Positions 4,769-61,333 of a stretch of 64,000 nucleotides of DNA are shown one piece after another. Position 1 is the first letter of the stretch, and each line of letters opens with the position of its first letter. The stretch comes from Patescibacteria group bacterium (GTDB lineage Bacteria > Patescibacteriota > Patescibacteriia > Patescibacteriales > UBA12465). The notes below the pieces were generated by a model. That model did no database searches. It was not told where the DNA came from and was given only the letters and a program-made list of their open reading frames with translations. Position numbers and translations under genes: made by a program. The DNA is taken from the NCBI GenBank assembly GCA_041650715.1, contig JBAZKQ010000001.1, positions 587,146 to 651,145 of the forward strand, given 5' to 3'.

Positions 4769-5635
4769 TCAACTCAAATGTTTTAAAAATTTTTTTATTT
4801 TTTTTAGAAACAGCATAATTACTATTACAACATAACTTAATATACCTAGCAGTTCATTACTATTGCCAAAACGCCCGATAAACTCAAGTTTACTATAATT
4901 CATTCGAAAATTCCAAATATACTGATCCTTATCCTCATGCCTATTACAATCAAAATATTTTACATCCTCAACAACCAATTCTTTAATATGCTTAATCAAA
5001 ATTAAACTTAATAGCGTGGTGTCATGTCTAAACATTTTTGCCTCTCTAACAAAATCAGTGCGGTTCACTCCTTTGTTTTTCCATTGTTCAGTCGGGGAAA
5101 ACCCCAAACATAGACCTGACTTTCCGGACGAGTACAAAATATTTGTAATATTTTTTAATTTATTACTGCGATCAAAACCAAAAATTCCAGCCGTTATTAT
5201 TTCTCTATCCGAATCTGATTCATTCATTCCAAATAAATCCATATATTCTTTCGGCGTAATGTCGGCAATATGTACTGTTCTTCCTTGGCTAACTGCTAAA
5301 TATCCATTAACCTCAATTTTTACAAATAAATCATCAAGTGGCCTAAGGACTTGATTGCCTGCATCTAAATATAGGTTTTGTTCAGCGAGAGGAGTGTTCA
5401 AAATATATGTTTTCCATGTATAGCATGACCGCCAAAATTCACAAAATTTTGGTATTTTTAAAACCTTTACATTATCCATTCTTTCAAGCTCTTTTTTGAA
5501 AAGATATAATAAGCCCAAATCATAAACGTAAATTGGTGGATGGTCTGGATAATTGACCTTCATTGACCCTATTAAATTTATTAGGGACGGAAAAAATTTA
5601 TTTGAGGCCGTTGTTATAATGCATTTTGTGATCAT
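4769..5635 (-). CDS. hypothetical protein, possibly a nucleotide-diphospho-sugar transferase
   Basis: 288 aa ORF inside the glycan cluster. No clear motif. Confidence 0.3.
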   Translation of the reverse strand: MITKCIITTASNKFFPSLINLIGSMKVNYPDHPPIYVYDLGLLYLFKKELERMDNVKVLKIPKFCEFWRSCYTWKTYILNTPLAEQNLYLDAGNQVLRPLDDLFVKIEVNGYLAVSQGRTVHIADITPKEYMDLFGMNESDSDREIITAGIFGFDRSNKLKNITNILYSSGKSGLCLGFSPTEQWKNKGVNRTDFVREAKMFRHDTTLLSLILIKHIKELVVEDVKYFDCNRHEDKDQYIWNFRMNYSKLEFIGRFGNSNELLGILSYVVIVIMLFLKKIKKFLKHLS

Positions 5636-5638
5636 ATA

Positions 5639-6961: not shown

Positions 6962-6979
6962 GCTATTAAAAAACCAGCT

Positions 6980-7228
6980 TTACCAATCGCTGGTCTTCTC
7001 AATTACTTTATTTTTTAAATTCAAATACGCACTCACCGCCTTCTCCTCGACGACAGGTGAGACTAACTTTAAAATCTCTAAGCCCAAGATGCGATATTGC
7101 TTCCCGACTTTATTGGCTTTAAGAATACCCTTCTTCAGCATACGCTTCAGGGTGCTATTGCTGATTTTAAGGAGAGCTTCCGTCTCACTCGTCGTATAAA
7201 CGGCATTAGGCTTGATTTCTTGGCTCAT
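6980..7228 (-). CDS. excisionase-family / MerR-like HTH DNA-binding protein
   Basis: 82 aa. TSETEALLKISNSTLKRMLKKGILKANKVGKQYRI matches the excisionase-family HTH (TIGR01764-like) pattern. Confidence 0.5.
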   Translation of the reverse strand: MSQEIKPNAVYTTSETEALLKISNSTLKRMLKKGILKANKVGKQYRILGLEILKLVSPVVEEKAVSAYLNLKNKVIEKTSDW

Positions 7229-37707: not shown

Positions 37708-38277
37708 CTATTTAACAATCATCGTGCCCGTGTTTCCGCGAAAGCCCGGAATATCATCACGGAAAGAATAGGATCCGGCGGCAGGAGCGGTAAATTCTAT
37801 AAGCTTGGTTTCACCACTTAAAATCATCATTGTCAGGCCCATTAAAGATGCGTTCGGAAAAATAAAAACATGAGTATTATTATCAACCGAACTGACGGCC
37901 AAGGATATCTTCTGACCGGCCGAAACGGTAAATTCTTTTGGGCTAAATCCTTCCGCAGAAACCGAAAGTTTTATGGCGCTCGTCGGAACATTACTCGTTT
38001 CGACAACCACCTGCTGGGGGGCATCGGCAGACCCGGGCAGTTCACCTAAAGTAGCGGGTATAACCGGAACTATCGTGCTGACATCAACTCCTTCAAGAGA
38101 GGCCGTCTTTGTTTCCGCTACCGGAGAAGTAGTAGCTTTACTCTCGCCGGCCGTATTTGATTGCGTTACGACGCCGGACGGTTTAAGCCAGTTTTTATTA
38201 CTTAAAAAAGCGAATAAAATTACTACTAAAATAATCACTAAAACAGCGATTAAAATAGTTAATTTTTTATTATTCAT
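37708..38277 (-). CDS. membrane-anchored cupredoxin-like protein (Cu ligands lost)
   Basis: Paralog of the 39878-40549 protein. The C-terminal motif is YSFRDDIPGFRGNTGTMIV, versus YTFRCDIPGHAARGEVGTMIV in the paralog. Confidence 0.45.
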   Translation of the reverse strand: MNNKKLTILIAVLVIILVVILFAFLSNKNWLKPSGVVTQSNTAGESKATTSPVAETKTASLEGVDVSTIVPVIPATLGELPGSADAPQQVVVETSNVPTSAIKLSVSAEGFSPKEFTVSAGQKISLAVSSVDNNTHVFIFPNASLMGLTMMILSGETKLIEFTAPAAGSYSFRDDIPGFRGNTGTMIVK

Positions 38278-38337: not shown

Positions 38338-39888
38338 TCATTTTTGATAATAGAAATCAAATAAAACTTCATTTAAAAAGGGGGAATAAAAACTGTCCGT
38401 TTGCGCCGGAAAGTCGACGCGCAAAAAATAATTATTTTCTACCGTCGCCTTAAAAGTTTGGTTCAAATTTTGTCCGCTCGGCAGCTCTTGCCAAAAATTA
38501 TTGTCCGTCGAGAATGAAAGCTTCCCTTCCGAACAAGGATTATCGGGAGAACCTAACTTGCTGGCGGCCAATTTTTTAATAGTTATCCCCGGTTCGGCAA
38601 TAATGGCATTATAAATTAACTCACCCGGCATTCTACTCTCAAAACCACGATCAGTAAAAACCCGGTTCGTCTCCATATTGTCCTGCCTAATCGTGGCCAG
38701 CAAGACGAACTTATCGGCCGCTGCCGCGACAAGGCGGAAAGAGGCCGATTCCCCGGAATTACTAAAGATATTTTGATAATCAGCTTCACCACTAATTTTA
38801 CCATCACTATTTTGCCAAAGTTTAATGAGCCGCGGACGACCCAAGCTCGAGCTATAGATATACCAATTAACAACCCGTCCATTAGTGGCTTTGATAATTT
38901 CCGGCCTAAAACCGGTCGCCATTACCCGAAAATCAAAAAAAGTACTGATATCCGTTACCGTAGCAGCCTGAAAACGATAGGCCTCACCGCGATAAGCGCC
39001 ATAAATTACTAAATAATCAGTATCGGAACCGCCGAAGCCAAACTGCCCCAAATAAGGAGAACTAATTTTTTCGGTCTGGTCGCCGAAAATAAGCGGACTA
39101 AATTTATTGCCATCAAAAATGTAGACCCTCCCTTGATAAGCGTCGCCCTCTTTTAGAGTTAGTCCAAGCAACCAGCGGGTGTCAAGCGCGCCAATCGTTA
39201 AAGCGACCACGTCGGCGGCCTTAATTTCACCGGGCAAAGCGAGAGGCTTCCCCTGATAACTTAAATGCTTCCCCGTTTGTTCTAAACAATTTCCGCCGAG
39301 ACAGCGCCGGTCAGAAATAACGAGAGGCTCTAAAAAATCACTTATTTTATTTTGAGCTAATGAATTACTTTTAGCTAACTCCGCTTCATTTTTTAAACTT
39401 TGACCGGAAGATTCTTCTTCCCAGGTATAGCGCGGCGGAAAATAAACGGCCGCCGCCAAATCATCGCGATAAAGCGTGCTCGCCGCTGAATTTAGTAAAT
39501 AATCACTCGCGAAACTATCAAAAAACGAACTGAATATCTGCGGCTTATCATCCACAATAATCTCGGAACTTAAGCACGGAACGCCTCCGTCGAGATTATC
39601 CTGCTCAGATAAGCGGGTTTGGGACTGCTCTCGGCTTAAGATCCGTTCAGTCATCGAGCCGGAATTCGAACCTTGATTAGCGGCCGCAAAATAAGTCCGG
39701 CAGCAAAATATAGTCAAATAATAAACAGCAATTAAAAAAAGACTAAAAATAATTAAATAGCCTAAATTTAAAAAATATTTATTTTTAACAGTTTTTCGCA
39801 TAGCCCGCTTTATAGCGCTTAGACTCACTTTATGAAAATGCCCCGCTATAGAGCGGGGCATTTTATAAAAACCGAGATTATTGAACAA
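38338..39888 (-). CDS. membrane-anchored hypothetical protein
   Basis: 516 aa. N-terminal TM, no recognisable motifs. Confidence 0.35.
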   Translation of the reverse strand: MFNNLGFYKMPRSIAGHFHKVSLSAIKRAMRKTVKNKYFLNLGYLIIFSLFLIAVYYLTIFCCRTYFAAANQGSNSGSMTERILSREQSQTRLSEQDNLDGGVPCLSSEIIVDDKPQIFSSFFDSFASDYLLNSAASTLYRDDLAAAVYFPPRYTWEEESSGQSLKNEAELAKSNSLAQNKISDFLEPLVISDRRCLGGNCLEQTGKHLSYQGKPLALPGEIKAADVVALTIGALDTRWLLGLTLKEGDAYQGRVYIFDGNKFSPLIFGDQTEKISSPYLGQFGFGGSDTDYLVIYGAYRGEAYRFQAATVTDISTFFDFRVMATGFRPEIIKATNGRVVNWYIYSSSLGRPRLIKLWQNSDGKISGEADYQNIFSNSGESASFRLVAAAADKFVLLATIRQDNMETNRVFTDRGFESRMPGELIYNAIIAEPGITIKKLAASKLGSPDNPCSEGKLSFSTDNNFWQELPSGQNLNQTFKATVENNYFLRVDFPAQTDSFYSPFLNEVLFDFYYQK

Positions 39889-40549
39889 TCATTGTACCGA
39901 CTTCACCACGAGCGGCATGTCCAGGAATATCACAGCGGAAAGTATAGGTTCCCTTTTTCGGGGCGTTCCAGGACTTAACGCGTGTTTCTCCACCGGCAAC
40001 GCCAAGCGCAGTCGCAGTCAAAGCGGTGTCATCAGGCAAGAAAACGTGAGTAAAGCTATCAGTTGAAGTTAAAACAAAGTTAACCAATTGACCTTCCTTA
40101 ACCGTAAAGGTGTTCGGCACAAAACCAGCACCGCTCACTGATAATTTAACGGTATTAGCACCGGTCGGAACTTGGCTCGCAGAAATTGGAGCTGATTCTT
40201 TAGGGGCATCGGCTGAGGACGGCATAACATTCAATTTAACCGGCGTGCCTTCCGGGGTCACAACTTTATTCTCCTTTGTAACTAAGCTGGTTCCAGTCGC
40301 AACTGAAACGGACGAGGCGATAATTTCCGGAGTAGCCGTCGCCGTTGAAACGACATCCTTCGAAGGAGCGATTTCTTCAGGCGAAGTTGTCGCGTTGCTC
40401 GCTTCCTGAGTAGGAGTAGTTATCCCCCCAGTCGGCAATTGGATTTTCTTGCTTTGGCTAATCGCGACAATAATGATAATCACCACCACCGCAATAACTC
40501 CAAGCAAAATAAACACTTTTTTCTTGTTTGTTTGCATAGATTTAAACAA
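39878..40549 (-). CDS. membrane-anchored cupredoxin (plastocyanin/azurin-like blue-copper domain)
   Basis: N-terminal TM, Thr/Ser/Pro linker, C-terminal C-x2-PGH-x4-GxM copper-site motif (FRCDIPGHAARGEVGTM). Confidence 0.55.
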   Translation of the reverse strand: MFKSMQTNKKKVFILLGVIAVVVIIIIVAISQSKKIQLPTGGITTPTQEASNATTSPEEIAPSKDVVSTATATPEIIASSVSVATGTSLVTKENKVVTPEGTPVKLNVMPSSADAPKESAPISASQVPTGANTVKLSVSGAGFVPNTFTVKEGQLVNFVLTSTDSFTHVFLPDDTALTATALGVAGGETRVKSWNAPKKGTYTFRCDIPGHAARGEVGTMIVQ

Positions 40550-40566
40550 TTTATATTTTAATTAAT

Positions 40567-41151
40567 TTAACGGCTTGACGTATAATCGTACTTTACTTTT
40601 AAATTCAATCTCTGCTGTAAAAGATTCGCCTGCTTAAGTTTGCCCTGGGCGATTAACTTATAGGTTTCACCAAATTGCACAAAATTATCGGCATTGACCT
40701 CCGGTTTCCAGCCCTGGCCGACGATACTCCGCCAAGCCTGATAATCACCCGCCATAATAGCGGCATCAATCTCACTGATTTTAGTCGTCAATACTTGAAA
40801 ATCTTGCTTTAAATTTAATTGCTTTTTGATTAGATTCGCCTCTTCGACTTTACCTTGCTGCAAAAGACGATAAACTTCTGTAAATTGAGAAAAATTGTCG
40901 CTCGTAATCTTTGCCTTGAGACTTTTATCGGTAACAAGACTGCTCCAGGTAGCGTAATCATTATTCATAATCGCCTCCTCAATCGCCACATTCTTTTCTT
41001 GAATGATGGCATCGCGAGCCGCATTAGCCTCGACCATCGCTTTAACAAAGAGCGGGGTGAGGGCAGCCAAACAAAGAAGAATAAATCCGATGGCTGAAAA
41101 AATTAATAATTTTTTGTGGTCGTGGAGATAGTTTTTAAATCTCTGCGTCAT
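40567..41151 (-). CDS. membrane-anchored protein with two ~55-aa internal repeats
   Basis: DYATWSSLVTD...ANLIKKQLNLKQ and DYQAWRSIVGQ...ANLLQQRLNLKVK. Confidence 0.35.
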   Translation of the reverse strand: MTQRFKNYLHDHKKLLIFSAIGFILLCLAALTPLFVKAMVEANAARDAIIQEKNVAIEEAIMNNDYATWSSLVTDKSLKAKITSDNFSQFTEVYRLLQQGKVEEANLIKKQLNLKQDFQVLTTKISEIDAAIMAGDYQAWRSIVGQGWKPEVNADNFVQFGETYKLIAQGKLKQANLLQQRLNLKVKYDYTSSR

Positions 41152-41269
41152 AGATTTTTTTTAAATTAATTTTTGCGAAGTTATATAAAATTTAATATAT
41201 ACTAATTATAGCATTTCGCCTTTTGATTGGCAACAAGTTTAAGCAAGCCCGCTTGGTTCACCACCGTTT

Positions 41270-42556
41270 TTAGCGAAGCTGGTTCTTCTGATAATTATAG
41301 TCAAAAGACTGGTTAAAACTCGTAATTATCTTCCGGTCGTCAGTTACCAGAGCCGACTCATCGTTATTGTAGGCGCCGGCCCGGCTCCAATTATTCGTTC
41401 CGAAAAAAATCTTTTGATTATCCACAATCAGCAGATGGTAATGCAGGAAGGGATCGAGACTCTCTACCGAGCTGGAAGCTAAAGCACTTGCCTCGTCGCC
41501 ACGCGGCGCGTCACTTATAATCTCTAAATTATTTAATTGATATTTCTGCTTGGCGGCTATTAGATTCTGAAAAACCGAGCTTTTATTATATAAATTACGA
41601 TTATCGGTAATTATTGTCACTTTTACCCCGGCGCGGGCGCGGGTGATTATTTCGTTCGCCAAACCAGAATCGGTAAAATCCCAAATCATAATTCTGATTT
41701 CCTGTTTGGCGCTATGCAATAATGTATAAATTCGATTGCTTAGACTATTACCCGGTACGCCTGGACCAAACCAAACTTCATAATTAGAGCCGCCGGCCGT
41801 CATGCTTAAATCCCAGGGATTATATTTTTTATCGCTGAGTTTTTTCGGTCCCGATTCCCCCTTAGCTAAGCGCTCAAACTCTCGCCCAAAACTCTTGATA
41901 AATTCGGCGTTACTCGTAATCAAGATAAAGCTGGGGTCATACTTTTCTTGAAGTTCAGTCCAATTATAGGAACCAAAAATTAATTTCTGGTTAGCTTCCC
42001 CACGATCGATGAGCGCAAATTTATGATGCATCAAAATGGTCTTGCCACTCTTCTCTTCCCCCAAGTCTAAGCGCTTAATGTTCGCCGGCATATCGGGCAG
42101 AGCTTCGTCATGCACTTCCTTTTTTCGAAAATCAAGAACCAGGGTAACCTTAACGCCACGCTTGGCAGCCGCATAAATCGCGTCTCTGATGCGCGGCGAC
42201 TTTAAAGAGTAGACCGCAATCTCCAACGATTTTTGCGCCTGATTTATTTCCGCCTCAATCCGATCGGAAAAAACTGTTGTGCCAAGTTCGTCATTAAACA
42301 GAAGATCAGCAGAAACCGGTTCATTAGATTGGATAATACGCGCCGGTTTATTATTGGTCGCTAAATAATTAGTCACCGGCTCGGACCAGCGCCGGGTCAG
42401 CTGGGCGACGAAAAATAAAAGTCCTAAAACCAGAAAGACGAGCAGTGTAATCCGAACTGATTTTTTCTTGATAATTTTTCTAAGTGTTTTTTTAAATTTC
42501 ATAGTGTTCGCTAAAAGTATCTTTCCCGCTATCTTCCGTCGCGAAGAAAACGACAA
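41270..42556 (-). CDS. phospholipase-D-family protein (two HKD-like motifs, N-terminal TM anchor)
   Basis: First motif HHKFALIDx12GSYN (HxKx4D...GSxN). Second motif HYHLLIVDNQKIFFGTNN, with K->H substitution. N-terminal hydrophobic anchor. Confidence 0.6.
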   Translation of the reverse strand: MSFSSRRKIAGKILLANTMKFKKTLRKIIKKKSVRITLLVFLVLGLLFFVAQLTRRWSEPVTNYLATNNKPARIIQSNEPVSADLLFNDELGTTVFSDRIEAEINQAQKSLEIAVYSLKSPRIRDAIYAAAKRGVKVTLVLDFRKKEVHDEALPDMPANIKRLDLGEEKSGKTILMHHKFALIDRGEANQKLIFGSYNWTELQEKYDPSFILITSNAEFIKSFGREFERLAKGESGPKKLSDKKYNPWDLSMTAGGSNYEVWFGPGVPGNSLSNRIYTLLHSAKQEIRIMIWDFTDSGLANEIITRARAGVKVTIITDNRNLYNKSSVFQNLIAAKQKYQLNNLEIISDAPRGDEASALASSSVESLDPFLHYHLLIVDNQKIFFGTNNWSRAGAYNNDESALVTDDRKIITSFNQSFDYNYQKNQLR

Positions 42557-44195
42557 TACTGGTCGGCAAATTAACTCGCAGCAAGTTCAAAAGCGCGTCG
42601 CAGTCGGCGTCATGCAAATCCGCCCAATAATTATCCACCGCGACGAAATAGGGGCGATTAGCCAAACAGTAAGCGACTTGCAATAATAGATTATTCTTCG
42701 GACTCTTGGTAAATTTATGCGCCTTAAGGCGCCAATCTTCTTTTTCAAAAAATATTTCTTTCAATTCCGGGTGGCCGTTAACTAAAGCCGAGATGCTGGC
42801 AAAATCTTCTTGGCTAATACGACTTTTCTCCCGGCCAGCGACTACCTCGAGCAAGGTGCGTTCGCTTTTAAATTTAGGGTCAATAAAATAAAAGCTGGCA
42901 TAGTGCTGAAAAAAATCATTATAAAAATATCGTTTGTCACGCGCTTTAATAATCCAGGCCCGTCGTCCGTATTCCCCGCGTCCGCAGAAAAGAGTGGCGA
43001 GCGTGCTTTTACCGCTCCGCCGGGCGCCGCTTATTAAATACTGCTTCCCGACCTTAAAAATAAATCGTAAATTTTTATAATAAGGCGATTTCTTAAATAA
43101 TTTTACTTTCGCGGACTTAAAAATCAATTCTTTAAAGCGCGGTTTCAGGTCACGGCCGATTTCCGGTGCCGTATTTTTCGGAACCGACAAAGAAAGGCCG
43201 AAGGTAAACGGTACGGAATAGAGACCGATACGCAAACTTTCATAAAGCAGGCGGGAAAAATAAACCGTGAAAATAACTAAAGCAAATTTATCGTTCGAAT
43301 CCGTCGTGGCGATAAAGTTAGAAATCTGCTGGTCATAAACGCTAAAAATCCAACCGAAAAAGATAATCAAAATAAAGACAACGCTGGCGCCGAAGCGCAG
43401 CCAAATATCGCGGCGCACCCGGAAATACGAATCAAGATCGACGAGATTATTAAAATCATTTAGCGTGGCCCGCTCACGATGGAAATATTTAGTAAATTGC
43501 CAATCCGATAAAGTAAAGTCAACCAATTTAATTATCTTGGAATAAAAAGTCGTTTCCCGCGAAACATAATAACGGGAAATGAAATAAGCGATGCCGGCAA
43601 TAATTATATTGATAATGAGGCCCGCGACGTAAAAAATTATCAGATGAGTACTGAAAACAAAACATAAAAACAAAAGAATAAGCGAATATAATAGCCAGCG
43701 AAGCGATCCCGCCAGACTATTGGTGAATCCCATGGCGAGCAGCGGGAGATGATACGATATTTTAGCTAATAATAGCCCTTTACTGTCAAGGTTCGCCGCC
43801 GCCGCTTCAGAATTAAGAGAAAGCTTGAACCACTTTAAACGCAGATTATTAATTAATTTTATAACCAGCGTCCGTTCCAATTTGATCGCAAAATAAGAAG
43901 CAAATAAATAAATAAGAGCGCCAACGGCAATAAAAACGAAAACCCGGCTATTGCTCATGAGGCCATAAATTTGCCCGCCGTTCTTTAAATAACGATGGCT
44001 CAGCAAAATCAAAATAACTTCCAGTATTCCCTGCACCAGCAAAAAAACCAAGGCGCGGGTAATTAGTTTTTTATGGCGGCCAAAGAATCTAAAAAGAAAA
44101 GCAAAATCATCGCGCGTCGGCCAGAGCGGCGAATTCTCCATGCGCTCGCCACGGCGGCGGCGCATTAAACTAATTTTTTTTGAGTCGATTGACAT
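42492..44195 (-). CDS. ABC-exporter-like protein (6-TM domain + degenerate NBD)
   Basis: N-terminal ~300 aa with ~6 TM helices. C-terminal Walker A GARRSGKST. Degenerate signature (NNLLLQVAYCLA instead of LSGGQ) and Walker B (VAVDN, no catalytic Glu). Overlaps the RT stop by 26 nt and the PLD start by 65 nt. Confidence 0.55.
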   Translation of the reverse strand: MSIDSKKISLMRRRRGERMENSPLWPTRDDFAFLFRFFGRHKKLITRALVFLLVQGILEVILILLSHRYLKNGGQIYGLMSNSRVFVFIAVGALIYLFASYFAIKLERTLVIKLINNLRLKWFKLSLNSEAAAANLDSKGLLLAKISYHLPLLAMGFTNSLAGSLRWLLYSLILLFLCFVFSTHLIIFYVAGLIINIIIAGIAYFISRYYVSRETTFYSKIIKLVDFTLSDWQFTKYFHRERATLNDFNNLVDLDSYFRVRRDIWLRFGASVVFILIIFFGWIFSVYDQQISNFIATTDSNDKFALVIFTVYFSRLLYESLRIGLYSVPFTFGLSLSVPKNTAPEIGRDLKPRFKELIFKSAKVKLFKKSPYYKNLRFIFKVGKQYLISGARRSGKSTLATLFCGRGEYGRRAWIIKARDKRYFYNDFFQHYASFYFIDPKFKSERTLLEVVAGREKSRISQEDFASISALVNGHPELKEIFFEKEDWRLKAHKFTKSPKNNLLLQVAYCLANRPYFVAVDNYWADLHDADCDALLNLLRVNLPTSIVVFFATEDSGKDTFSEHYEI

Positions 44196-45390
44196 GCTGG
44201 CTTGATAAGAAATGTTTATAAATCGAGACTAAGGGGATGCCTTTTAACTTTTCGTTAAGAAGGCGCCGGTTTTTAGGGGTATAGGTACCAAAAAAATAAC
44301 GGGTTAAAATATGGAAGAAAGCTTCGGAAACCGCTCGGACTTCTTCGGACTTAGTCACTAACTTTTTTTGCTCGGCAATTTGCTTAAACTGTTCGTATAA
44401 ATTATTGCGCTCTCTTTTCAAGGACTTAGTGATAAAATCCTTTTTCCTTTGCTCGTCATGCACGCGGTAATAATCAAATTGTGCACTCCAGCGCTTCAGC
44501 ATCTGCTTTAGGAAGCCCGGCTCCAGCCCGATAGCACCCGCGTTAAAATTATAACCTAAAAAATTAAAAACATCGTTAGCGCGGCCCAGTCTGGTTTTCT
44601 TTTCATTAATTTTTAAACCCAGTTCTCCCGCCGCCATTACCAAATGCTCATATAAAGGCTGCAGCCGTTCCGCTTTTTGATCAAAAATAATTAAATCATC
44701 GCCGACGCGGCGATAAAAGTCGGCTCGTGGGCCCGAGTATTTATCAAAATCATCCAAATATAAATTATTAAATAGAGCGACGAGCGGGACGCCCTGAATG
44801 ATACCCACTTCCCGGTTAACGACTTTGCCGTCCTTAATAATTTTATTGCCGATAAAGAGCTTTAAAAGTTTATAGACGTCACCCTCAAAATTCAGTTTCT
44901 CGATTTTTTTGAGCAGCAATACGGGGCTGATATAATTGGAGTAATCCGTTAAATCGGCGACCAGCGCAAAATCGCGATTATGATATTTTTTATAATGACG
45001 CACAACGCTGCGCGCGGCGAAATAACTTTGGTGCGAAGAACGATAGGAAAATAACCACTCGGAAAAATAAGCGTCGAAAAAGGGTTCAACTATTTGATAA
45101 ATCGCCTGCGCTTTGACTCTTTCCTTGAGATTATAAATATAGATCTCCCGCATTTTCTGGGGATTGTTTTTTTTCGGAATCGTAAAAAGAACGGCCGGCG
45201 AAAGCTCTTTAAAGGCAATCATTTCGCGGCGCACTTCCTTAATTAATTTAGCGGGATCAACCTCTAAATCACCTTGTTTCAAACCGTCATAACCCGCATA
45301 GCGCCCGGCGCGGCCGTCTGCATCCATTTGCTCGGCCAATTTCAAATAAGCCTTTTCGAGATTATCACGGGAAATTATTTCTTTAAACAT
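44170..45390 (-). CDS. reverse transcriptase (group-II-intron-like / retron-like RT domain, no maturase or intron RNA)
   Basis: Motif 0 ISRDNLEKAYLKL. Motifs 1-2 IPKKNNPQKMREIYIYNLKERVKAQAIYQIVEPFF. Motif 2a SYRSSHQSYFAA. Motif 3 FALVADLTDYSNYI. Motif 4 GIIQGVPLVALFNNLYL. Motif 5 FYRRVGDDLIIF (VGDD in place of YADD). Motif 6 LGLKINEKKTRLG. Motif 7 FNFLGY. ATG at 45390. The ORF track extends to a TTG at 45402. Confidence 0.8.
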   Translation of the reverse strand: MFKEIISRDNLEKAYLKLAEQMDADGRAGRYAGYDGLKQGDLEVDPAKLIKEVRREMIAFKELSPAVLFTIPKKNNPQKMREIYIYNLKERVKAQAIYQIVEPFFDAYFSEWLFSYRSSHQSYFAARSVVRHYKKYHNRDFALVADLTDYSNYISPVLLLKKIEKLNFEGDVYKLLKLFIGNKIIKDGKVVNREVGIIQGVPLVALFNNLYLDDFDKYSGPRADFYRRVGDDLIIFDQKAERLQPLYEHLVMAAGELGLKINEKKTRLGRANDVFNFLGYNFNAGAIGLEPGFLKQMLKRWSAQFDYYRVHDEQRKKDFITKSLKRERNNLYEQFKQIAEQKKLVTKSEEVRAVSEAFFHILTRYFFGTYTPKNRRLLNEKLKGIPLVSIYKHFLSSQHVNRLKKN

Positions 45391-45414
45391 AAAAAAAATC
45401 AAATACCCTGGTCG

Positions 45415-45684
45415 CTACTTCTAAGCTGACCGAACCTTAACGGACGGCCATCATTTAAATGACAATGAGTCTTTCCCTTGATAAGGGAGAGATTTTCTTT
45501 TCGACTATTACATATCTAATATGTGATAGTCTTTTCGCACGGCCGTAAGGCTTTGCGATTTTTCGCGGACGTAAGTCTGCGTTTTTTCGGATTTAATTAA
45601 TTCATAAAATGCCACCGGCACTAGCGGTTTTTTTATGGCATCAACCGATTAATTCTTAATGCCTCTTTCGAGTTTTAGAAGTAG
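45415..45684. ncRNA. structured non-coding unit 1 (~270 nt) flanked by 10-bp terminal inverted repeat ctacttctaa/ttagaagtag; candidate RT-associated ncRNA
   Basis: No ORF. At least four hairpins, including GNRA-type loops (ggcc-gtaa-ggct). Contains the 12-bp palindrome tcatttaaatga. Homologous to unit 2 with compensatory changes. Confidence 0.55.
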
Positions 45685-45743
45685 TCGCCAGGATATTTAA
45701 TTTTAAAATTACTAAAAACTGTTAACTATAAATATCCTGATAA

Positions 45744-45988
45744 CTACTCCTAAGCTGGTCAAACCTTTACGGACGACCATCATTTAAATGACAATGAGTC
45801 CTCTTCTTGAGAAGGAGAGGATTTTCTTTCGCTATTGCATAGTTTACTATGCAGTAGTCTTATACGTGAAGCCGCAAGGCAACATGTATAATTCGGATTT
45901 AATTAATTCATGAGCGTCACCGGCATTAGCGGTTTTTTGCGGCGCCGACCGATTAATTCTTAATGCCTCTTACGAGTTTTAGAAGTAG
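45744..45988. ncRNA. structured non-coding unit 2 (~245 nt), tandem copy of unit 1 (~80% identity), flanked by ctactcctaa/ttagaagtag
   Basis: Same hairpins as unit 1 with covarying stems (acatat/atatgt -> gcatag/ctatgc; tctttccctt/aagggagaga -> tcctcttctt/aaggagagga). One hairpin deleted relative to unit 1. Confidence 0.55.
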
Positions 45989-46051
45989 TTGTCAGGATAT
46001 TTAATTTTAAAAATACAGAGACTTTACGATCGCTCTAATTTATTATGTCAT

Positions 46052-49000
46052 CTACCGATTAACGATAACTCCCGTTTGCGCTTGGTCATGCGCTCGCGTC
46101 GGCCAATTCTGCCAATCGTAGCGTTTGCCGATTAAACGATAAGAAATTTCCACCGCTTCGTTTGAGCGGAAAATTAATTTATTATTTTCAATAACATAAT
46201 AGACATTAGCGAATTTACCCGACGGGGTAATAAATACTTGGACATTATCATTATTATAATCAACAACTTTATGCCAGAGCCAGAGGTCGCTGCCCTCGTC
46301 TTCAAGCGCAAAATTTATAATATATTCATATTCCCGCGTCTTGGCATTAAAACGCTGAATATCTGCCTTCCCGACATATTCCTCCTTAACGCCACCGGCG
46401 ATTGAAGGCGCGAAAGTAGAATAATTAACATCATTAATATTATACAAAGGATCGATTGTCGTAGCGGTAATCTTAGTGACGGTCAAATTATTCAAGTTAG
46501 TAATATTTTTGGCACCAAAATTTACGTCACCCAGCATTGTGCCGCCGGTAAGCGGTAAATAATTACCGGTGGGCATTGAGCTGGTCGCAGCCGCAATTAA
46601 TGTTTTCACAATTCCATAATTAGCAAGAGCATAGTCATCAGTACTCAAATATGTGCTCGCATAATTATGCCCGGTATTTAATGAGCCGGCCGGAGCGGTG
46701 CCCGCGTTGCCGATAGAGAAAATATCGTTAGGAGCGGTCGTACCGATACCAACTTTACCCGTGCCTCCCGGCATTAAAGCGAGGTTAACACCCGAAGCGG
46801 TAGTAATAGAGTTGGGACCGGTTCCGGAGAAGGCTAAATCAGCACCGGCACCAGAGAGAGTAATGCCGGTTGTCCCGGCTAAGGCTAAATTGGCGGCGCC
46901 ATAAATATCACCACCGGCAATATTCAAACGATAGGCACCCGGCAGAGATGTCCCAATACCGACGTTCCCGGTAGCGTTAACAAAAACACCTTCATTACCG
47001 CCGTCTCCCGATAACCAATAATTACCAAGTAAAATATTTTGTGTGGCCGTATGGTCGCCTAAATTATCGCCACCAGTTGCCGTACCGCAATCTGTCGTTT
47101 TAGCGGAAACGTTTCCGGTCGCATCGACATATAAACAGCGATTGCCCACCCCGGATAAAGCGGTGGTAATTTGACCATTTAAATAACTGGTCCCGACGAC
47201 AGCCAATTTATAAGCCGGTGTCGTTGTACCGATGCCGACGTTGCCCAAACTTTCACTAACATAAAATAATGAAGACCCGCTTCGATTATTAATATGGAAA
47301 CCAACGTTTGTGGAATCATAACCGACGCTCATTCGTTCCAGACCGGATGAATTCAAAAATTTCAGCATTTTGTCATTGGACGTCGCGGAGTTAGATTGAA
47401 TAGCTATTTGTCCACCGGTAACCGTTAATTTGCTGCCGGGTGTTGTCGTCCCAATCCCGACATTCCCTGCTCCGGCCGCACCGTTCCAAATATTACTGTT
47501 TAAAGTTCCACCCCAAAAATTTGTTCCTCCGGCGGGCAGCGAGCTCGTTGCGGCCGCAATCAAGGTTTGAACGATGCCATAGTTAGCAAGCGCATATACA
47601 TCAGAACTTAAATAAGTGCTCGTATAATTATGGCCAGTTGCGCTGGACCCAGCCGGAGCCGAACCGGAGTTGCCGATAGAGAAAATATCGTTAGGAGCGG
47701 TGGTACCAATACCAACGTTGCCGGAAGTTCCTAATATAGTCATTCTTATATTTGCATAACCATCCGTAGAAAAATATATTGGCTTGGCAGCAACATCATT
47801 TGAAAAATATAAATCAGTAGCATTTAATCCGTATCCGAACCAACCTAATCTTATTCCAGAATTATTAAAAAATTCAGCATAAGGCGTTGCAGCTTTTAGT
47901 CCCAGCGTATGACCAACCCCTTGAATCATTGTAACAACACTGTTAGCGGAGCTGTAAACATGTAATGGATAAGCGGGGCTAGTGGTGCCAATTCCAACAC
48001 TCCCGGCAGCATTTACAAAAACACCTTCATTGCCGCCATCGCCTGATAACCAATAATTACTTAATTGAATATTTTGCGTTGCAATATGAGAACCTAAATC
48101 ATCGCCCCCGGTCGCCGTACCGCAATCCGTTGTTTTCGCGGACATATTGCCACTCGCATCAACATATAAACAGCGGTTGCCTACTCCGGATAAAGCGGTG
48201 GTAATTTGACCATTTAAATAACTGGTCCCGACGACAGCCAATTTATAAGCCGGTGTCGTTGTGCCGATACCGACGTTACCGAAAGAATTAATAAACTGGC
48301 GGGTAACGCCATTGCTTACAAAACTAAGTGTTTTATTTGTACCATCAAATAATACTTGTGCTTCTGTACCGCCTAAAGTACTTGACAAAGTGTTAACCTC
48401 AAGCGTTGTTCCATAATAAACCGAACCGCTTTCTGTTCTAAATTGGGCCGCTCTAATATTTCCGGCCACCTGTAACTTATCTATCGGAGCAGTTGTCCCG
48501 ATTCCCACATTTCCCGCTCCGGCATCGCCATTCCAAATATTTACATTCTTAGTACCTCCCCAAAAATTTGTTCCTCCGGCGGGCAGCGAGCTCGTTGCGG
48601 CTGCGATTAAAGTATTAACGATTCCATAATTTGCCAGAGCGTAATTATCCGTACTTAAATATGTATTTGTAAAATTATGTCCGGTATTTGCCGACCCGGC
48701 CGGAGCCGAACCGGAGTTGCCAATGGAAAATCTATCGTTAGGAACGGTCGTCCCGATCCCAACATTGCCGGAAGCAATAATGCGCATAGCCTCTGTTCCC
48801 TGATTTACAAAAAATGCATGCTGGCCATTAACACCCGCTTGATATTCCATTACATTAAGCGACATGCCGATACCATATCGATTGCCGGTAGAACCATTGG
48901 TAAACATGTCCCACTTTAAGTTATTTACACTTCCCGCGACACTCGAACCATAAGTACCGCCGAAGGAAACGTTTAATGGCGTCGGAGTTGATACCGATAC

Positions 49001-49843
49001 CGTAGTACCAAATAAGGCGCTACCATTAACGTTCAATAATCTTGTCGGATTCGTTATTCCAATCCCGACATTATCCGTGATTGTACTCGGATATAAATAG
49101 GGTGCTGTTCGTGTCCAACCGCCCGCTCCACCGCTAACTGAAGCCCAATCAGTTCGACAGTCATCCTGAAAACATAAACGATTAGCTTTTAAATCACCCT
49201 CGATTCCGAGTGAAACCACATCGCCGGTGCCATAAGCAAAAGGAGTCGCACCGTTATAATTCCCAAACCAAAGCGAGGTCGTCCCGACTCCGGTTAAGGC
49301 AATCGATTTATTATTAGTTAATTGTAAATCTCCTGTCGGTGCTAAATTACCAAGACTATCAAGCGTTAAAGAAGGAGTGACAACCTGCTTAATAAACCCA
49401 CTGACATTTGATAAATTTGAAATTTTGAGCGGCGCGGAAACGCAAGCACCGGATATTAAATCATAACCGGCGACACAAGAGGTGCAGGAATTGCTCGTAC
49501 AAGTATCGCAAGTGGCACAATTCGATCCGGCCGTACAATTTGAAACGCAAGCGCCGCTACAATTCGTATATCCGCTACTACAAGTTAAAGCACAGCCGCA
49601 AATATTACAGTCAAAAGCATAAGTACCATTGGCCGGATTAGAGGGACATGCGGCCGTCGGCTCGATTGTACAGGCAAGCGTATTACTGCCGCACCAAGAC
49701 TTGCCACCATCCGCCCAGGAGCATAATTCCCCGTTTTTCATCGTATCGGTAATACAACCTTTAGGCGAAGTGGTCGCAAAAACTCCGGTAGCTATGAACA
49801 GCCCGGAGAATACGACAATGGCGAGCAAAAATTTCTTCGTCAT
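46052..49843 (-). CDS. giant secreted tail-fibre-like repeat protein (1263 aa) with Cys-rich N-terminal region
   Basis: Signal peptide. Cys-rich region (~60-140). Three copies of the ~90-aa module NVGIGTTAPNDIFSIGNSGSAPAGS.NTGHNYT.TYLSTDDYALANYGIV.TLIAAATSSLPAGGTNFWGGT.N.NIWNG.AGAGNVGIGTT. Also carries the NGQITTALSGVGNRCLYVDA.GN.SAKTTDCGTATGGD module. Confidence 0.7.
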   Translation of the reverse strand: MTKKFLLAIVVFSGLFIATGVFATTSPKGCITDTMKNGELCSWADGGKSWCGSNTLACTIEPTAACPSNPANGTYAFDCNICGCALTCSSGYTNCSGACVSNCTAGSNCATCDTCTSNSCTSCVAGYDLISGACVSAPLKISNLSNVSGFIKQVVTPSLTLDSLGNLAPTGDLQLTNNKSIALTGVGTTSLWFGNYNGATPFAYGTGDVVSLGIEGDLKANRLCFQDDCRTDWASVSGGAGGWTRTAPYLYPSTITDNVGIGITNPTRLLNVNGSALFGTTVSVSTPTPLNVSFGGTYGSSVAGSVNNLKWDMFTNGSTGNRYGIGMSLNVMEYQAGVNGQHAFFVNQGTEAMRIIASGNVGIGTTVPNDRFSIGNSGSAPAGSANTGHNFTNTYLSTDNYALANYGIVNTLIAAATSSLPAGGTNFWGGTKNVNIWNGDAGAGNVGIGTTAPIDKLQVAGNIRAAQFRTESGSVYYGTTLEVNTLSSTLGGTEAQVLFDGTNKTLSFVSNGVTRQFINSFGNVGIGTTTPAYKLAVVGTSYLNGQITTALSGVGNRCLYVDASGNMSAKTTDCGTATGGDDLGSHIATQNIQLSNYWLSGDGGNEGVFVNAAGSVGIGTTSPAYPLHVYSSANSVVTMIQGVGHTLGLKAATPYAEFFNNSGIRLGWFGYGLNATDLYFSNDVAAKPIYFSTDGYANIRMTILGTSGNVGIGTTAPNDIFSIGNSGSAPAGSSATGHNYTSTYLSSDVYALANYGIVQTLIAAATSSLPAGGTNFWGGTLNSNIWNGAAGAGNVGIGTTTPGSKLTVTGGQIAIQSNSATSNDKMLKFLNSSGLERMSVGYDSTNVGFHINNRSGSSLFYVSESLGNVGIGTTTPAYKLAVVGTSYLNGQITTALSGVGNRCLYVDATGNVSAKTTDCGTATGGDNLGDHTATQNILLGNYWLSGDGGNEGVFVNATGNVGIGTSLPGAYRLNIAGGDIYGAANLALAGTTGITLSGAGADLAFSGTGPNSITTASGVNLALMPGGTGKVGIGTTAPNDIFSIGNAGTAPAGSLNTGHNYASTYLSTDDYALANYGIVKTLIAAATSSMPTGNYLPLTGGTMLGDVNFGAKNITNLNNLTVTKITATTIDPLYNINDVNYSTFAPSIAGGVKEEYVGKADIQRFNAKTREYEYIINFALEDEGSDLWLWHKVVDYNNDNVQVFITPSGKFANVYYVIENNKLIFRSNEAVEISYRLIGKRYDWQNWPTRAHDQAQTGVIVNR

Positions 49844-49861
49844 ATAAAAATTATAGCAAAT

Positions 49862-52800
49862 TTATTTACAGCAAGCGAATTTTCGCGCAACGTTACAGCG
49901 GTTAAGCGAACCGAAACCATCAGCATACCCGGTCGGACGATTCCAGACCGCGCCGAAATCAGTACTAACATTACTTGTCCACCCGATACAGTCATTGGCA
50001 TTAGCCGTATAGGCCGGCGGACCATTATTAATCCAGAGTGTAGAGGTGAGCGGAATACTCGCCCCGCTGCCCTGATTGACCGTATATAAAATTTCTTCAG
50101 AAGTACAAACATGCGTATCGGCAACAGTCGCCGCACATAAAGCATTGGCCGCGCTATAGCTGCCGACGTTGCCGGCATAGGTTAAAGCGGTTGAAGTAGA
50201 ATAGGTCGCTAAACCACCGCCGGTCGAACCCGAGATCAATGACTTCACTACGCCGTAATTAACTAAAGCGTAATCGTCTGTGCTTAAATAAGTATTCGTA
50301 AAGTTATGACCGGTGTTCGTTGAACCGGCTGGAGCGGAGCCCGAGTTGCCGATTGAGAATATATCATTCGGTACGGCGGTACCAATGCCGATATTGCCGG
50401 TGCTTAGTATGGTCATTCGATCAGAAAGTGAGTTAAACAAGGACCCGGAACTGCCGGCATCCGCTGTTTGAAAAGTGATGTTGCCACCGATAGCCGAGCC
50501 GGTTCCCGGACCGCCCGCAATGACTAAATTCGCGCCCGCATTATTTGTGCCGAGACCGCCCGTAGCGAATAAAGAAATCGTGCCCGGGTTCGAAGCATAA
50601 ACTCCCTTCCCTAAATAGATATCATTTTGATTCGCACCTAAGATTATCTGATTACTCTTTAAAGCCTTTGCGTTATACCCGACCACAATTGAATTGGCCG
50701 AATCGGCAATAACGCTTGTAAGCGAAGCATCGGCCGTCGTATCGGAATAGGTGGTCGTTGAATTATCATTAATAGTTGCCACTAAATAATATGGCCCCTT
50801 ACCATAAACGCCTGACTTAGTACGATAAATTTTTCGAGCTGTACAAAGATACGGCCCCGTGTAGGTCGGAATTGCACTCAAATTAACCGCTTGATTACCG
50901 GACGTCGTATTTATGCTTCCTAAGTGCCCGCTATTTGTTTCCCCAATAGACAAAACAAAGCTCACTCGATAATAATATGGGCCGACGCCCAGATTACTCC
51001 CGGCGGCCAAAGCGAGAGAACCGGTGCCGGGGCTAAGATAATCTGCACCGCTCCCCAAGGCAATATTATAAGAACCGTTTACCGTACTGACAAGAGAATT
51101 AGTACCCAGCGCCAAAGTATCGCTATTGGCATTTCCATAATAATTTGAGTTAAAGCCCAAAATAACATTACTATTTCCCGTAGAATTCCAGCGCCCGGCG
51201 TAATAGCCCATCATGACCGCACCGGCGCCGGTCCAAGATTCGCCCGCGCCCAGACCGACTAAAGTATTATTGCTGCCGGTCGTAATTTGGTTACCAGTTT
51301 GACGACCAATTAAAGTATTCATCGTTCCGGTCGTTATGGCTGAACCGGCGCCGCGGCCAATAGCCACGTTATAACTACCAGTCGTTAGATTCTGACCCGC
51401 CTGAGCTCCGATAAAGGTATTTTCGGTAGCGGTTGTCAAAGTTGTGTTACCGGCCTGATAACCGACAAAAATATTATTAGTATTTCCAAAAGAATGAATA
51501 TATCTTTGCCCGCCCATCTTAATTATACCTTCAGTAGAGGAAGATAAAGGTAGGCCAAGATTACCTTGAACATATAATTTATCAGCCGGGGTGCTTGTGC
51601 CAATACCAACATTCCCTGCGCCCGCAGTCCCGTTCCAAATATTTCCGTTAAAAGTGCCTCCCCAGAAATTCGTTCCCCCGGCCGGTAGTGAACTGGTCGC
51701 GGCGGCGATTAAGGTTTGAACAATTCCGTAGTTAGTAAGAGCATAATCATCTGTGCTCAAATATGTGTTTGTATAGTTATGGCCAGTATTACCCGATCCA
51801 GCCGGAGCGGAGCCGGAATTACCGATTGAGAATGTATCGTTAGGAACATTTGTGCCGATACCGATATTGCCCAATGAATCGATAAACTCGCGTGTGGCAC
51901 CGTTTGTTACGAAACTTAGTGTCTTGCCAGGGCCATCAAACAATATTTGTGCTTCTGTACCGCCTAAAGTACTTGACAAAGTGTTAACCTCAAGCGTCGT
52001 TCCATAATAAAACGAACCGCCATCCGTTCTAAATTGGGTTGCCCGTATATTTCCTGCGACTTGTAGTTTGTCACCTGGCGCTGTCGTCCCAATCCCGATG
52101 TTGCCTCCGGCCGCTATTCTCATTCTTTCAACATTTGTAGACTGAGTAAATGTTATTGGCTGGTCACCTGAAGTTGCAAAACCAAGAGGATAAGTAGTTA
52201 TAGTTTGAAATAAAGATCTGGCAGTATCCTTCCCATTAATTCTAAACCCATTTAAATAAGTATAGCCGTCTACATATAAGGCCCACGGTTGAGCGCCCGT
52301 CCAGGCGGTATTTTGTTTAACATAAAGAGCGGAGCCTCCGCCATTATTAGTTCCGCCATCTCCAGCCGTAGCCGAATTTATCGTCAAGGCTGAGCCCGGT
52401 GTCGTCGTCCCAATGCCAACATTCCCCGCCCCAGCGTCGCCGTTCCAAATATTACCGTTTAAAGTCCCACCCCAGAAATTCGTTCCCCCGGCCGGTAGTG
52501 AACTGGTCGCGGCGGCGATTAAAGAATTTACGTAACCAACATTAGTTAAGGCATAATCATCGGTTGCTAAATATGTACTCGTAAAGTTATGGCCAGTGTT
52601 CGAGGAACCAGCCGGAGCGGTACCGGAATTACCAATAGAAAAGATATCGTTTGGCACAGTTGTGCCAATCCCGACGTTGCCATTAGCAAGGATCATCATA
52701 TTATATCTGACAGCTGAGTTATACCAACTACTAAAAGTAAAATTTGAAGCGGAAGAATAAAAAGTGTTTGCGGAAAAAGCGGATGCACCAACGATAAACT

Positions 52801-56452: not shown

Positions 56453-56459
56453 AAATTAA

Positions 56460-61262: not shown

Positions 61263-61333
61263 TGCGCTTTTTACTTCTATATTATATCACAGAAAATTGA
61301 TTTTTTTGTTTTGTCTACCGACTTTTATTTTTC

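Follow-up and report, generated by a model that had tools for sequence, protein, structure and literature searches.

A candidate reverse transcriptase-based system of Patescibacteria with a dedicated structured RNA and ABC-exporter-like and phospholipase D-family proteins

Comparative analysis of a 64,000-nucleotide stretch of a Patescibacteria group bacterium genome (GenBank assembly GCA_041650715.1, contig JBAZKQ010000001.1, positions 587,146 to 651,145; this whole stretch is called the window below) has revealed a cassette in which two tandem units of a structured non-coding RNA (ncRNA) precede three genes, for a free-standing reverse transcriptase (RT), a protein resembling an ATP-binding cassette (ABC) exporter, and a membrane-anchored protein of the phospholipase D (PLD) family. 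RNA and RT are obligately paired in the genomes, and the association of the RT, ABC-like and PLD genes is almost obligate. This arrangement recurs in dozens of independent genomes and is therefore far beyond chance. The explanation tentatively favoured here is that of a lineage-restricted, four-component system derived from a retroelement, in which the RT would copy variable hairpins of its RNA, the output would lie at the membrane, and the system would have an accessory role in conflict.

Components of the cassette

A previous reading of the same DNA, made from its letters alone (the original prediction), had proposed a module of four parts, the two RNA units, the RT gene, the ABC-like gene and the PLD gene, and all of them were found on the minus strand at the position that it had given. 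The features, all on the minus strand, are as follows.

46008-41270: the cassette, consisting of two tandem ncRNA units and three tightly packed genes.
45726-46008: distal ncRNA unit (unit 2), about 283 nt, identified by its inverted repeat, the z-score of its fold and covariance-model matches.
45396-45704: proximal ncRNA unit (unit 1), about 309 nt, identified by its inverted repeat, the z-score of its fold and covariation.
44170-45390: RT gene, 406 amino acids (aa) from the ATG at 45390, identified by Pfam, PADLOC, a PDB profile search and AlphaFold/Foldseek.
42492-44195: putative pseudo-ABC half-transporter, 567 aa, identified by the Pfam domains of its homologues, motif analysis and AlphaFold/Foldseek.
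41270-42502: putative membrane-anchored, two-domain PLD-family phosphodiesterase, 410 aa from the ATG at 42502, identified by Pfam, PADLOC and PDB matches.

Several limits differ from those first proposed. The tandem units had been recognised as such and bounded at 45415-45684 and 45744-45988; they extend over 45396-45704 and 45726-46008, and the terminal inverted repeats that enclose them, described as 10 bp long, are in fact about 30 nt long with 83-84% complementarity. The longest open reading frame (ORF) of the RT runs over 44170-45402 from a TTG at 45402; because homologues begin with MFKEII, the start is most likely the ATG at 45390, which lies 4 nt past the end of the closing stem of the RNA. 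The ABC-like gene begins within the end of the RT gene, with an overlap of 26 nt, just as had been noted, and the overlap is identical in a close relative, L001 (homologous loci are given by such numbers). A reported 65-nt overlap of the PLD gene with the ABC-like gene holds only for the longest PLD ORF, of 428 aa from a TTG at 42556; the likely PLD start is the ATG at 42502, giving an overlap of 11 nt, as in L001. Thus the reading frames of the three genes overlap both in the window and in L001, and across loci the median distances from a stop to the first aligned residue of the next gene are 2 and 14 nt.

Distribution and conservation

The RT family comprises about 100 clusters of proteins of about 406 aa, mostly labelled Patescibacteria or Falkowbacteria, after which scores drop steeply. 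An exhaustive search with a hidden Markov model (HMM) of 1.84 billion representatives gave about 45-60 clusters at 50% identity that match over their full length at more than 200 bits, and below them lies a 130-170-bit plateau of other RT lineages. Judged by this steep drop in bit score, the family appears to be discrete and separate from other RT lineages.

A scan of species-representative genomes gave 78 RT loci. In tblastn searches with the window proteins, the RT, ABC-like and PLD genes were found together in 73 of 80 loci and were colinear in 68; five distant loci have the ABC-like and PLD genes in a divergent or inverted arrangement with respect to the RT. Seven loci are incomplete, six because a contig end cuts them; the seventh (L072) has no detectable PLD gene. 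The co-occurrence holds down to 27% RT identity. The conserved neighbourhood and the covarying RNA described below bear out the proposal of an RT-based multi-gene system with a dedicated structured ncRNA. The original prediction had itself named intron domains, an unconserved neighbourhood and a decayed protein-coding gene in place of the RNA as findings that would speak against it, and none of the three was found.

Six genomes hold two or three cassettes, whose RTs are 37-64% identical. One genome, labelled Saccharibacteria, has three complete cassettes (L047, L054 and L058); the first two lie in opposite orientation on the same 49-kb contig, CAYOAT010000007.1, and the three RTs are 55-64% identical to each other. 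L072 (7001-15188) is the only locus of sufficient length with no PLD relative detected downstream, and its ABC-like gene is weakly similar (25%); it may represent a variant of the system with a different partner.

Many loci come from metagenome-assembled genomes with unreliable organism labels (several are labelled 'uncultured Gammaproteobacteria'), so the restriction to Patescibacteria rests on the labelled majority. The outlying loci, one from Flavobacteriaceae, one from Longimicrobiales and two from Omnitrophota, may be real or may be binning errors. A phage-borne element was also considered. The sole match in IMG/VR, a 10-kb sequence with giant surface-protein genes, the RNA and the RT (L081, IMGVR_UViG_3300001866_000229), is 100% identical to part of the chromosomal-type locus L001, with the same surface-protein genes; its viral label is probably a misclassification, and the idea was dropped.

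A pseudoknotted RNA supported by covariation

Both units are predicted to fold into a long closing stem around an interior of several hairpins, with energies of -109.6 (unit 1) and -91.1 kcal/mol (unit 2) and z-scores of -9.5 and -7.2 relative to shuffled sequence. The units are 86% identical, and several of their differences in the closing stem are compensatory. Their parts, on the minus strand, are as follows.

Unit 1, 45675-45704 and 45395-45424: 5' and 3' arms of the closing stem (P1).
Unit 1, 45663-45674: A-rich joint and P2 hairpin.
Unit 1, 45657-45662 (GCAUUA) and 45618-45623 (UAGUGC): pseudoknot strands.
Unit 1, 45595-45654: P3-P5 domain.
Unit 1, about 45472-45594: variable central hairpins.
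Unit 1, 45448-45471: conserved motif GACUCAUUGUCAUUUAAAUGAUGG.
Unit 1, 45428-45449: 3' hairpin.
Unit 2, 45979-46010 and 45722-45753: arms of the inverted repeat, with closing-stem arms at about 45979-46008 (5') and 45728-45753 (3').
Unit 2, 45895-45984: conserved 5' domain.
Unit 2, 45961-45966 and 45923-45928: pseudoknot strands.
Unit 2, 45777-45800: conserved 3' motif.
Unit 2, 45757-45778: 3' hairpin.

With nhmmer, all loci whose RT is at least 50% identical show a unit upstream of the RT gene; L003 has two of them in tandem and L001 has one. An alignment of 18 homologous units was used to test a structure made up of a 25-bp closing stem, a small hairpin, an H-type pseudoknot (in the family, GGCAUUA with UAAUGCC), a three-helix domain and a 3' hairpin. 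In this alignment 94.9% of the cells are paired, compared with 29-45% in controls in which the pairing was slid, and compensatory changes occur at 54 of the 61 pairs, a level reached in none of 500 shuffles; the P1 stem covaries at all 25 of its pairs. Among the paired cells G.U (93) outnumbers A.C (21), which argues that the functional strand is the RNA in the sense of the RT.

The RNA reaches well beyond the close relatives. A covariance model of the 91-nt 5' domain, iterated twice and built with the pseudoknot left out, gave 67 matches in about 60 of the 80 loci, all of them on the RT strand and 5' of the RT, with scores of 94.6, 84.1 and 77.8 bits recorded for unit 2. Matches extend down to about 30% RT identity and include L076, where the ABC-like and PLD genes stand in a divergent arrangement and the RNA still adjoins the RT. 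Pairing in the pseudoknot reaches 99.7% across 54 distinct sequences, with double changes at six of its six pairs. As a negative control, 548 kb of otherwise unrelated metagenomic DNA gave no false match; its single match is genuine, with the three genes of the cassette downstream of the RNA. (This control set came from a metagenome scan with a short RNA sequence pattern that was too loose for any other use: one of 80 loci screened with the model held the true RNA, and that one alone of 120 encoded the RT.) The units therefore form a covarying RNA, which disposes of the possibility that they are a decayed gene.

Across the family the RNA measures 200-310 nt and its closing stem 25-30 bp. The core is conserved, and the central hairpins vary in number and sequence, also between the two units of the window. 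Tandem pairs, which the original prediction had thought unusual, recur in L003, L034, L035 and L044, so that they arose repeatedly, and they have a precedent in the ncRNA arrays of UG27. Rfam holds no relevant match, either at a permissive E <= 10 over 40000-47000 or at the gathering threshold over the window; the unit region matches only unrelated models, those of miRNA precursors among them, at scores that all fall well short of the gathering threshold, and the only gathering-level match in the window is a tRNA. The units thus represent a new pseudoknotted RNA family, absent from Rfam.

Two further observations concern the placement of the RNA. In L038, 2 kb separate it from the RT downstream; a terminator-like hairpin follows the RNA, and pilin genes lie between. 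Three tandem type IV pilin-like paralogues, near-identical over their N-terminal 150 aa or so, surround the RNA there (3806-7004); it sits between the first and second of them, and the RT starts right after the third. A recent duplication of the pilin gene has separated this RNA from its RT. In the window, a 24-nt stretch at 46039-46062 is 88% identical to the P3/P4 part of a unit (45629-45652) and takes in the final codons and stop codon of the 1263-aa surface-protein gene upstream together with some of its 3' flank; it could be the remnant of a decayed third unit, or chance.

The reverse transcriptase

The RT matches Pfam RVT_1 at 6.9e-16. Among PADLOC models, the generic RT model and RT_UG26 tie at 120 bits (1.9e-35), the latter match covering profile positions 47-326 of 398 in a model that has no curated cut-off; RT_UG17 (78 bits), Drt9 (54 bits), RT_UG27 (42 bits) and the best retron model (RT_II-A, 26 bits) follow. 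In NCBIfam, the group II RT/maturase model TIGR04416 scores 115.6 bits, below its cut-off of 300 bits, and the Drt2 model 39 bits, against a cut-off of 390. A profile search of the PDB gave the group II intron RT GsI-IIC first (3e-31, 112 bits), then Cas6-RT-Cas1 (5e-27), DRT9 (1.6e-16) and DRT2 (2e-13), and lower down G2L4 (2e-8) and the retron Ec86 RT (7e-5, 25 bits). The AlphaFold model (pLDDT, a per-residue confidence score, 87.8) tells the same story: in Foldseek it matches GsI-IIC over its full length, about 410 columns, with a TM-score of 0.75 and with group II fingers, palm and thumb, followed by DRT9 (0.66) and, much lower, Ec86 (0.41). On this modelled fold the RT appears to be a free-standing group-II-intron-like enzyme. 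Since Rfam detects no intron RNA domains around it, the earlier description of a group-II-intron-like RT that has no intron was apt.

The catalytic motifs are intact, and VGDD, already seen in place of YADD, is invariant in the family within Y-R-R-V-G-D-D. In an alignment to group II RTs, VGDD falls on YADD, and the tyrosine of A-D-L-T-D-Y-S falls on the first phenylalanine of D-L-E-K-F-F, which we take to be the steric gate that excludes ribonucleotides. Because an aromatic residue occupies this presumed gate, the enzyme is likely a DNA polymerase rather than an RNA-dependent RNA polymerase. The latter had been considered on account of the xGDD motif, and the overall RT fold disfavours it as well.

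P0208, P0209, P0217 and P0218, from the exhaustive RT search, are among the nearest relatives outside the family that were checked. Several near out-of-family RTs are proteins of about 850 aa with two RT domains and maturase (GIIM) domains in one chain, and one is a 944-aa RT-TPR-primase fusion with domains of the TOTE conflict system. No fusion to an ABC or PLD domain was seen among borderline members of the RT family, only the double RTs with maturase and the one RT-TPR-primase protein.

The ABC-like and PLD proteins

The 567-aa product of the second gene matches no Pfam family. Many of its homologues carry PF00664 (ABC_membrane) and some carry PF00005, and its AlphaFold model (pLDDT 79.8) has the six transmembrane helices of a type IV exporter followed by a C-terminal nucleotide-binding domain, matching MsbA, TmrAB and TAP over the full length in Foldseek (E about 1e-16). 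Among 27 family members, the Walker A lysine is not conserved (the position reads GKT, GKS, GRS, FLS or NET), Walker B is hhhhD-N and lacks the catalytic glutamate, and there is no LSGGQ. An exporter-like gene with a degenerate ATPase, as first described, is thus what the fold and motifs indicate. The family has near-invariant charged motifs of its own, AKISYHLPLL, ETTFYS, LDSYFRVRRDLWLRF and YFSRLLYESLR, which, if the topology of an exporter is assumed, would lie in or near cytoplasmic loops.

The product of the third gene matches Pfam PLDc_2 at 6e-40. Its two halves resemble NucT (6e-25) and DrmC (1e-14), with cardiolipin synthase at only 3e-5; PDB matches are to Zucchini/MitoPLD (1.6e-9), NucT (8e-8) and Nuc (2e-6), and in PADLOC the protein matches the DrmC and MkoC defence models. 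These matches suggest a PLD protein of the Nuc/NucT/Zucchini nuclease type, the branch to which it had been assigned earlier. A census of motifs and topology in 72 family proteins showed that the first motif is canonical and invariant (HxKx4D...GSxN). The second, HxHx4D...GTxN, keeps its histidine and aspartate and has histidine for lysine in 71 of 71 proteins, so that of the two HKD motifs originally proposed both are there, the second as H-x-H-x4-D. The N-terminal hydrophobic helix, a signal anchor, is much more positive on its N-side in 63 of the 65 proteins in which a helix was detected. By the positive-inside rule, the catalytic domain is therefore predicted to lie outside the cytoplasm.

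A model for the function of the cassette

In the favoured explanation, the RT would bind the conserved 5' domain and the pseudoknot of the RNA and would copy part of it, most likely the variable central hairpins, into a short single-stranded complementary DNA (cDNA). This step is modelled on the retron, DRT2 and DRT9 RTs, and especially on UG27 RTs with their arrayed RNA units; extra tandem units would be extra templates. The resulting RT-RNA particle may then dock on the conserved cytoplasmic loops and the dead nucleotide-binding domain of a dimer of the ABC-like protein. Together with the surface-exposed PLD protein, this dimer would be the output module at the envelope, with the PLD enzyme as the catalytic output on the outer face of the membrane. 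In a conflict role, whether against phages or against mobile elements, the making or the disturbance of the cDNA or of the ribonucleoprotein (RNP) would switch the membrane pair on.

The assignment to conflict or defence is our best guess at the role and the weakest step of the model; nucleic-acid transport at the envelope is nearly as plausible. An accessory role in conflict is preferred because the family is rare and patchy, because diverged paralogous cassettes occur within genomes, because the PLD protein is akin to the DrmC and MkoC models, and because the TOTE-type RT-primase fusion is among the nearest outgroup RTs checked.

A number of points weigh against this assignment or against parts of the mechanism. 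The predicted extracytoplasmic position of the PLD domain is an odd place for an effector that acts on phage DNA inside the cell, and the ABC-like protein, by its motifs, appears to be catalytically degenerate and not an active ATPase, which does not favour an ATPase effector. As to cDNA synthesis, the 5' arm is followed by a joint that reads AAAA, ACAA or AGAA and lacks a conserved branching G in two unit alignments, and the unit alignments contain no identifiable priming site. (A telomerase-like use of the A-rich joint as a short template was dropped because its single-stranded part is only 3-4 nt.) The RNA could be partly regulatory: its closing stem would sequester the ribosome-binding region of the RT, and since it covers this region some autoregulation of the RT is plausible. 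Pfam and PADLOC searches of 150 flanking ORFs show no enrichment of a defence-island kind, only scattered defence-like matches, several of them generic, and as a census for defence islands they point clearly in neither direction; the GC content of the cassette, about 0.41-0.42, is close to the 0.42-0.44 of adjoining 2-kb windows. Finally, over a range of 50-87% RT identity the clade of the window keeps the cassette in stable synteny with p194, cupredoxin and surface-protein genes, which looks more like vertical inheritance than the turnover of defence genes.

Alternative explanations

Some of these same points suit a different role, possible though somewhat doubtful, in which the cassette is a machine for nucleic acids at the envelope, tied to an episymbiotic, scavenging lifestyle and not to immunity. 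In one version, for export or display, cDNA made by the RT or an RNP would pass out through the ATPase-dead ABC-like dimer, and the surface PLD enzyme would cut or transfer it; in the other, for import, a surface nuclease and an ABC-like conduit would take up extracellular nucleic acid, which the RT-RNA particle would process. The predicted extracytoplasmic position of the PLD domain fits such a machine, as do its closest relatives NucT, Nuc and Zucchini; the NucT of Helicobacter is a membrane-associated nuclease linked to DNA uptake. So do an exporter fold that has lost its ATPase motifs and keeps invariant charged motifs in regions read as cytoplasmic loops, and three genes that are very close, with overlapping frames in the window and in L001, since tight packing suggests a single membrane-spanning complex. 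The stable synteny with giant surface-protein genes in the window clade, the pilin-like neighbours in 12 loci and the lack of a defence-island context point in the same direction, and in topology and neighbours this explanation fits better than a conflict role. Against it, no ABC-fold protein is known to move nucleic acid with an RT, so that there is no precedent; the family is far too rare and patchy for a core scavenging function; and pilin and surface-protein genes are common in Patescibacteria genomes, so that their adjacency may be background.

It is improbable that the RNA is mainly a cis-acting leader, an autoregulator of the RT operon and not a template, with the RT acting elsewhere, for example in repair like that of G2L4. 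The P1 3' arm of unit 1 does hold the purine-rich region where ribosomes would bind for the RT, its end lies 4 nt from the ATG, and the RT has a group-II-like fold; the RTs of group II introns bind a stem-loop of the RNA, in domain IVa, which overlaps the site where their own translation starts. However, units occur repeatedly in tandem, and of such a pair the proximal unit alone can reach the ribosome-binding site; in L038, moreover, two pilin genes and a terminator-like hairpin separate the RT from an RNA 2 kb upstream. Tandem units and this displaced RNA make a purely regulatory leader unlikely. In addition, a pseudoknotted RNA of 200-310 nt with a variable centre greatly exceeds a translational operator in complexity, and the resemblance to G2L4 is distant (2e-8).

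A speculative variant of export, with a slightly smaller chance still of being right, is a polymerisation-driven device. Here the RT, seated on the ATPase-dead ABC-like dimer, would thread hairpin single-stranded DNA (ssDNA) outward with the energy of deoxynucleotide incorporation, and the HKD/HHD PLD enzyme would trim it or transfer it by transphosphatidylation onto an acceptor in the envelope, so that cells would carry programmed DNA on their surface or outside it.

A retron, to whose architecture the original prediction had compared the module, is disfavoured. A bona fide retron would combine an msr-msd RNA, a retron RT and effectors, and the order seen here is indeed that of a retron: a structured RNA enclosed by inverted repeats, the RT directly after it, and then accessory genes. 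The RT itself lies outside the retron clade (26 bits on the best retron model, as opposed to 120 on the UG26 and generic RT models; 25 bits and a TM-score of 0.41 for Ec86, as opposed to 112 bits and 0.75 for the group II RT). Moreover, the A-rich joint has no conserved branching G, Rfam gives nothing retron-like at E <= 10 over the unit region, and the centre of the RNA consists of several short hairpins in place of one long msd stem. A true retron is consequently very improbable.

No better a prospect is a decayed or mobile group II intron, a miniature inverted-repeat transposable element (MITE) or other repeat, or a diversity-generating retroelement (DGR) that acts on the neighbouring surface proteins, despite the group-II-like fold of the RT, the terminal inverted repeats and the giant surface-protein genes adjoining: no group II family appears in Rfam at E <= 10 in 40000-47000 or at gathering score in the window, and coding sequence abuts the 3' side of the RT, the next gene overlapping its stop by 26 nt; in more than 1 Mb of loci and in the window the units occur solely 5' of RT genes, and the 37-64% identity of the paralogues argues against recent transposition; and no match exceeds 22 nt when the units are compared with the window or, for five loci, the RNA with the remaining sequence of its locus, while the differences between units 1 and 2 are mostly transitions, with no adenine bias.

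Relation to known systems

The closest parallel in design is UG27, a Class 2 UG/Abi system with prophage-borne ncRNA arrays, in which the variable central hairpin of the units is copied into ssDNA of 50-100 nt and all three proteins are required (bioRxiv 10.64898/2026.09.22.753630). Like UG27, the cassette combines an RT and two accessory proteins with ncRNA units that are conserved in structure, variable in sequence and able to form tandem arrays; in the cassette the flanks are conserved, the centre is variable, and there are one or two units per locus. Unlike UG27, its RT belongs to another family (42 bits on RT_UG27) with a group-II-like fold, its RNA is larger, with a long closing stem and a pseudoknot, and it resides on Patescibacteria chromosomes rather than in prophages of gut bacteria. 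Its accessory proteins are membrane proteins of known folds, whereas those of UG27 are reported to have no detectable domains (bioRxiv 10.64898/2026.09.22.753630).

Retrons share the order of RNA, RT and accessory genes, long inverted repeats like a1/a2, and an RNA with an msr-like conserved and an msd-like variable part; they differ in the RT clade, the branching G, and the several short hairpins and the pseudoknot that mark the cassette RNA. DRT2 (UG2) and DRT9 (UG28) likewise have an RT with a dedicated structured template ncRNA immediately upstream (PMC9226505). However, in DRT2 the RT and ncRNA alone suffice for defence (PMC9226505), whereas two membrane proteins are strictly linked to the cassette RT; scores on the DRT2 and DRT9 models are also low, and nothing in the cassette suggests concatemeric or homopolymeric products. 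As for UG26, whose RT model ties for the best score, the only reported partner is a Vsr-like endonuclease in 9 of 35 members (PMC9226505), and no such endonuclease is seen at the cassette.

Because its RT is closest to group II intron RTs and is not accompanied by intron RNA, the cassette fits the concept of a domesticated intron RT, as in the G2L groups (PMC8632793); free-standing group-II-like RTs of this kind include UG17 (the former G2L3) and CRISPR-associated RTs. It differs in being a discrete family, with G2L4 distant, and in its dedicated ncRNA and ABC-like and PLD partners, which are absent from the G2L descriptions compared (PMC8632793 among them).

The accessory proteins also have recognisable counterparts. 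The ABC-like protein has the full-length fold of the type IV exporters MsbA, TmrAB and TAP, six transmembrane helices and then the nucleotide-binding domain; it differs from them in lacking the conserved Walker A lysine, the catalytic glutamate and LSGGQ and in having family-specific charged motifs. Each half of the PLD protein aligns to the single-HKD nucleases Nuc, NucT, Zucchini (MitoPLD) and DrmC, and Zucchini has an N-terminal membrane anchor. In the cassette protein two halves are fused, the second motif is an invariant HxH, and the catalytic domain is predicted to be extracytoplasmic. No other gene of DISARM lies among the immediate neighbours of the cassette, although the window was not scanned for them.

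The combination of RT, RNA, ABC-like and PLD genes is not described in the UG/Abi classification, in RT reviews, in the myRT survey or in full-text searches, a coverage of the literature that is partial, so that an earlier description is possible. Retrons, DGRs and the UG/DRT systems are lineages of bacterial RTs that each rely on an RNA of their own; if the favoured explanation is right, the cassette would be the fourth, one derived from group II intron RTs, and it would also provide the first link of an RT to an ABC-exporter-fold protein and an apparently surface-exposed PLD enzyme. To our knowledge, few known defence systems have been reported in Patescibacteria, which are thought to depend on imported nucleotides; either a lineage-specific immunity or an RT-linked transaction at the envelope would be informative about the life of these ultra-small, very abundant, uncultured bacteria. 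RTs that are compact, group-II-like and paired with a defined RNA have further interest as tools for DNA synthesis in cells.

Genomic neighbourhood

Clustering of neighbouring genes shows no fourth gene that is conserved throughout the family. A companion limited to one clade is p194, identified by tblastn and neighbour clustering.

40567-41151, minus strand: p194, a small protein.

This protein, which matches no Pfam family, has an N-terminal hydrophobic stretch followed by an internal duplication (DNFSQFTEVYRLLQQGKVEEANLIKKQLNLK / DNFVQFGETYKLIAQGKLKQANLLQQRLNLK). It is clade-specific: 16 loci with an RT identity of 50% or more have it beside the cassette, and more distant loci lack it. In L004 and L017 it is found upstream of the RNA, still adjoining the cassette.

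As companions of the cassette, cupredoxin-like and giant surface-protein genes are likewise confined to the clade of 50% or higher RT identity, and pilin-like genes are the most recurrent neighbours in divergent loci (12 loci). A Pfam census of the 150 flanking ORFs gave cupredoxin (8), pilin N_methyl (8), sigma-70 (4) and T2SSG (4) and was otherwise made up of varied housekeeping functions.

The giant surface-protein genes placed near the module by the original prediction are four consecutive ORFs of 1263, 2196, 1600 and 846 aa directly upstream (46052-63874, minus strand). The 1263-aa ORF has an N-terminal signal-like sequence and many repeats of the GNVGIGTT type. Homologues flank the cassette in 13 loci of the same clade and have diverged far more quickly than it, with 43-72% identity compared with 83-87% for the cassette. 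On the other side of the cassette, a 516-aa ORF lies between the genes of two paralogous cupredoxin-like proteins with membrane anchors (37708-38277 and 39878-40549, minus strand); these three genes also come after the cassette in L001 and L003, and in 10 loci cupredoxin-like genes are found downstream. At the far end of the window, positions 1-6000 have a GC content of 0.32-0.34, compared with 0.40-0.47 in most of the rest, and may be a compositionally distinct island.

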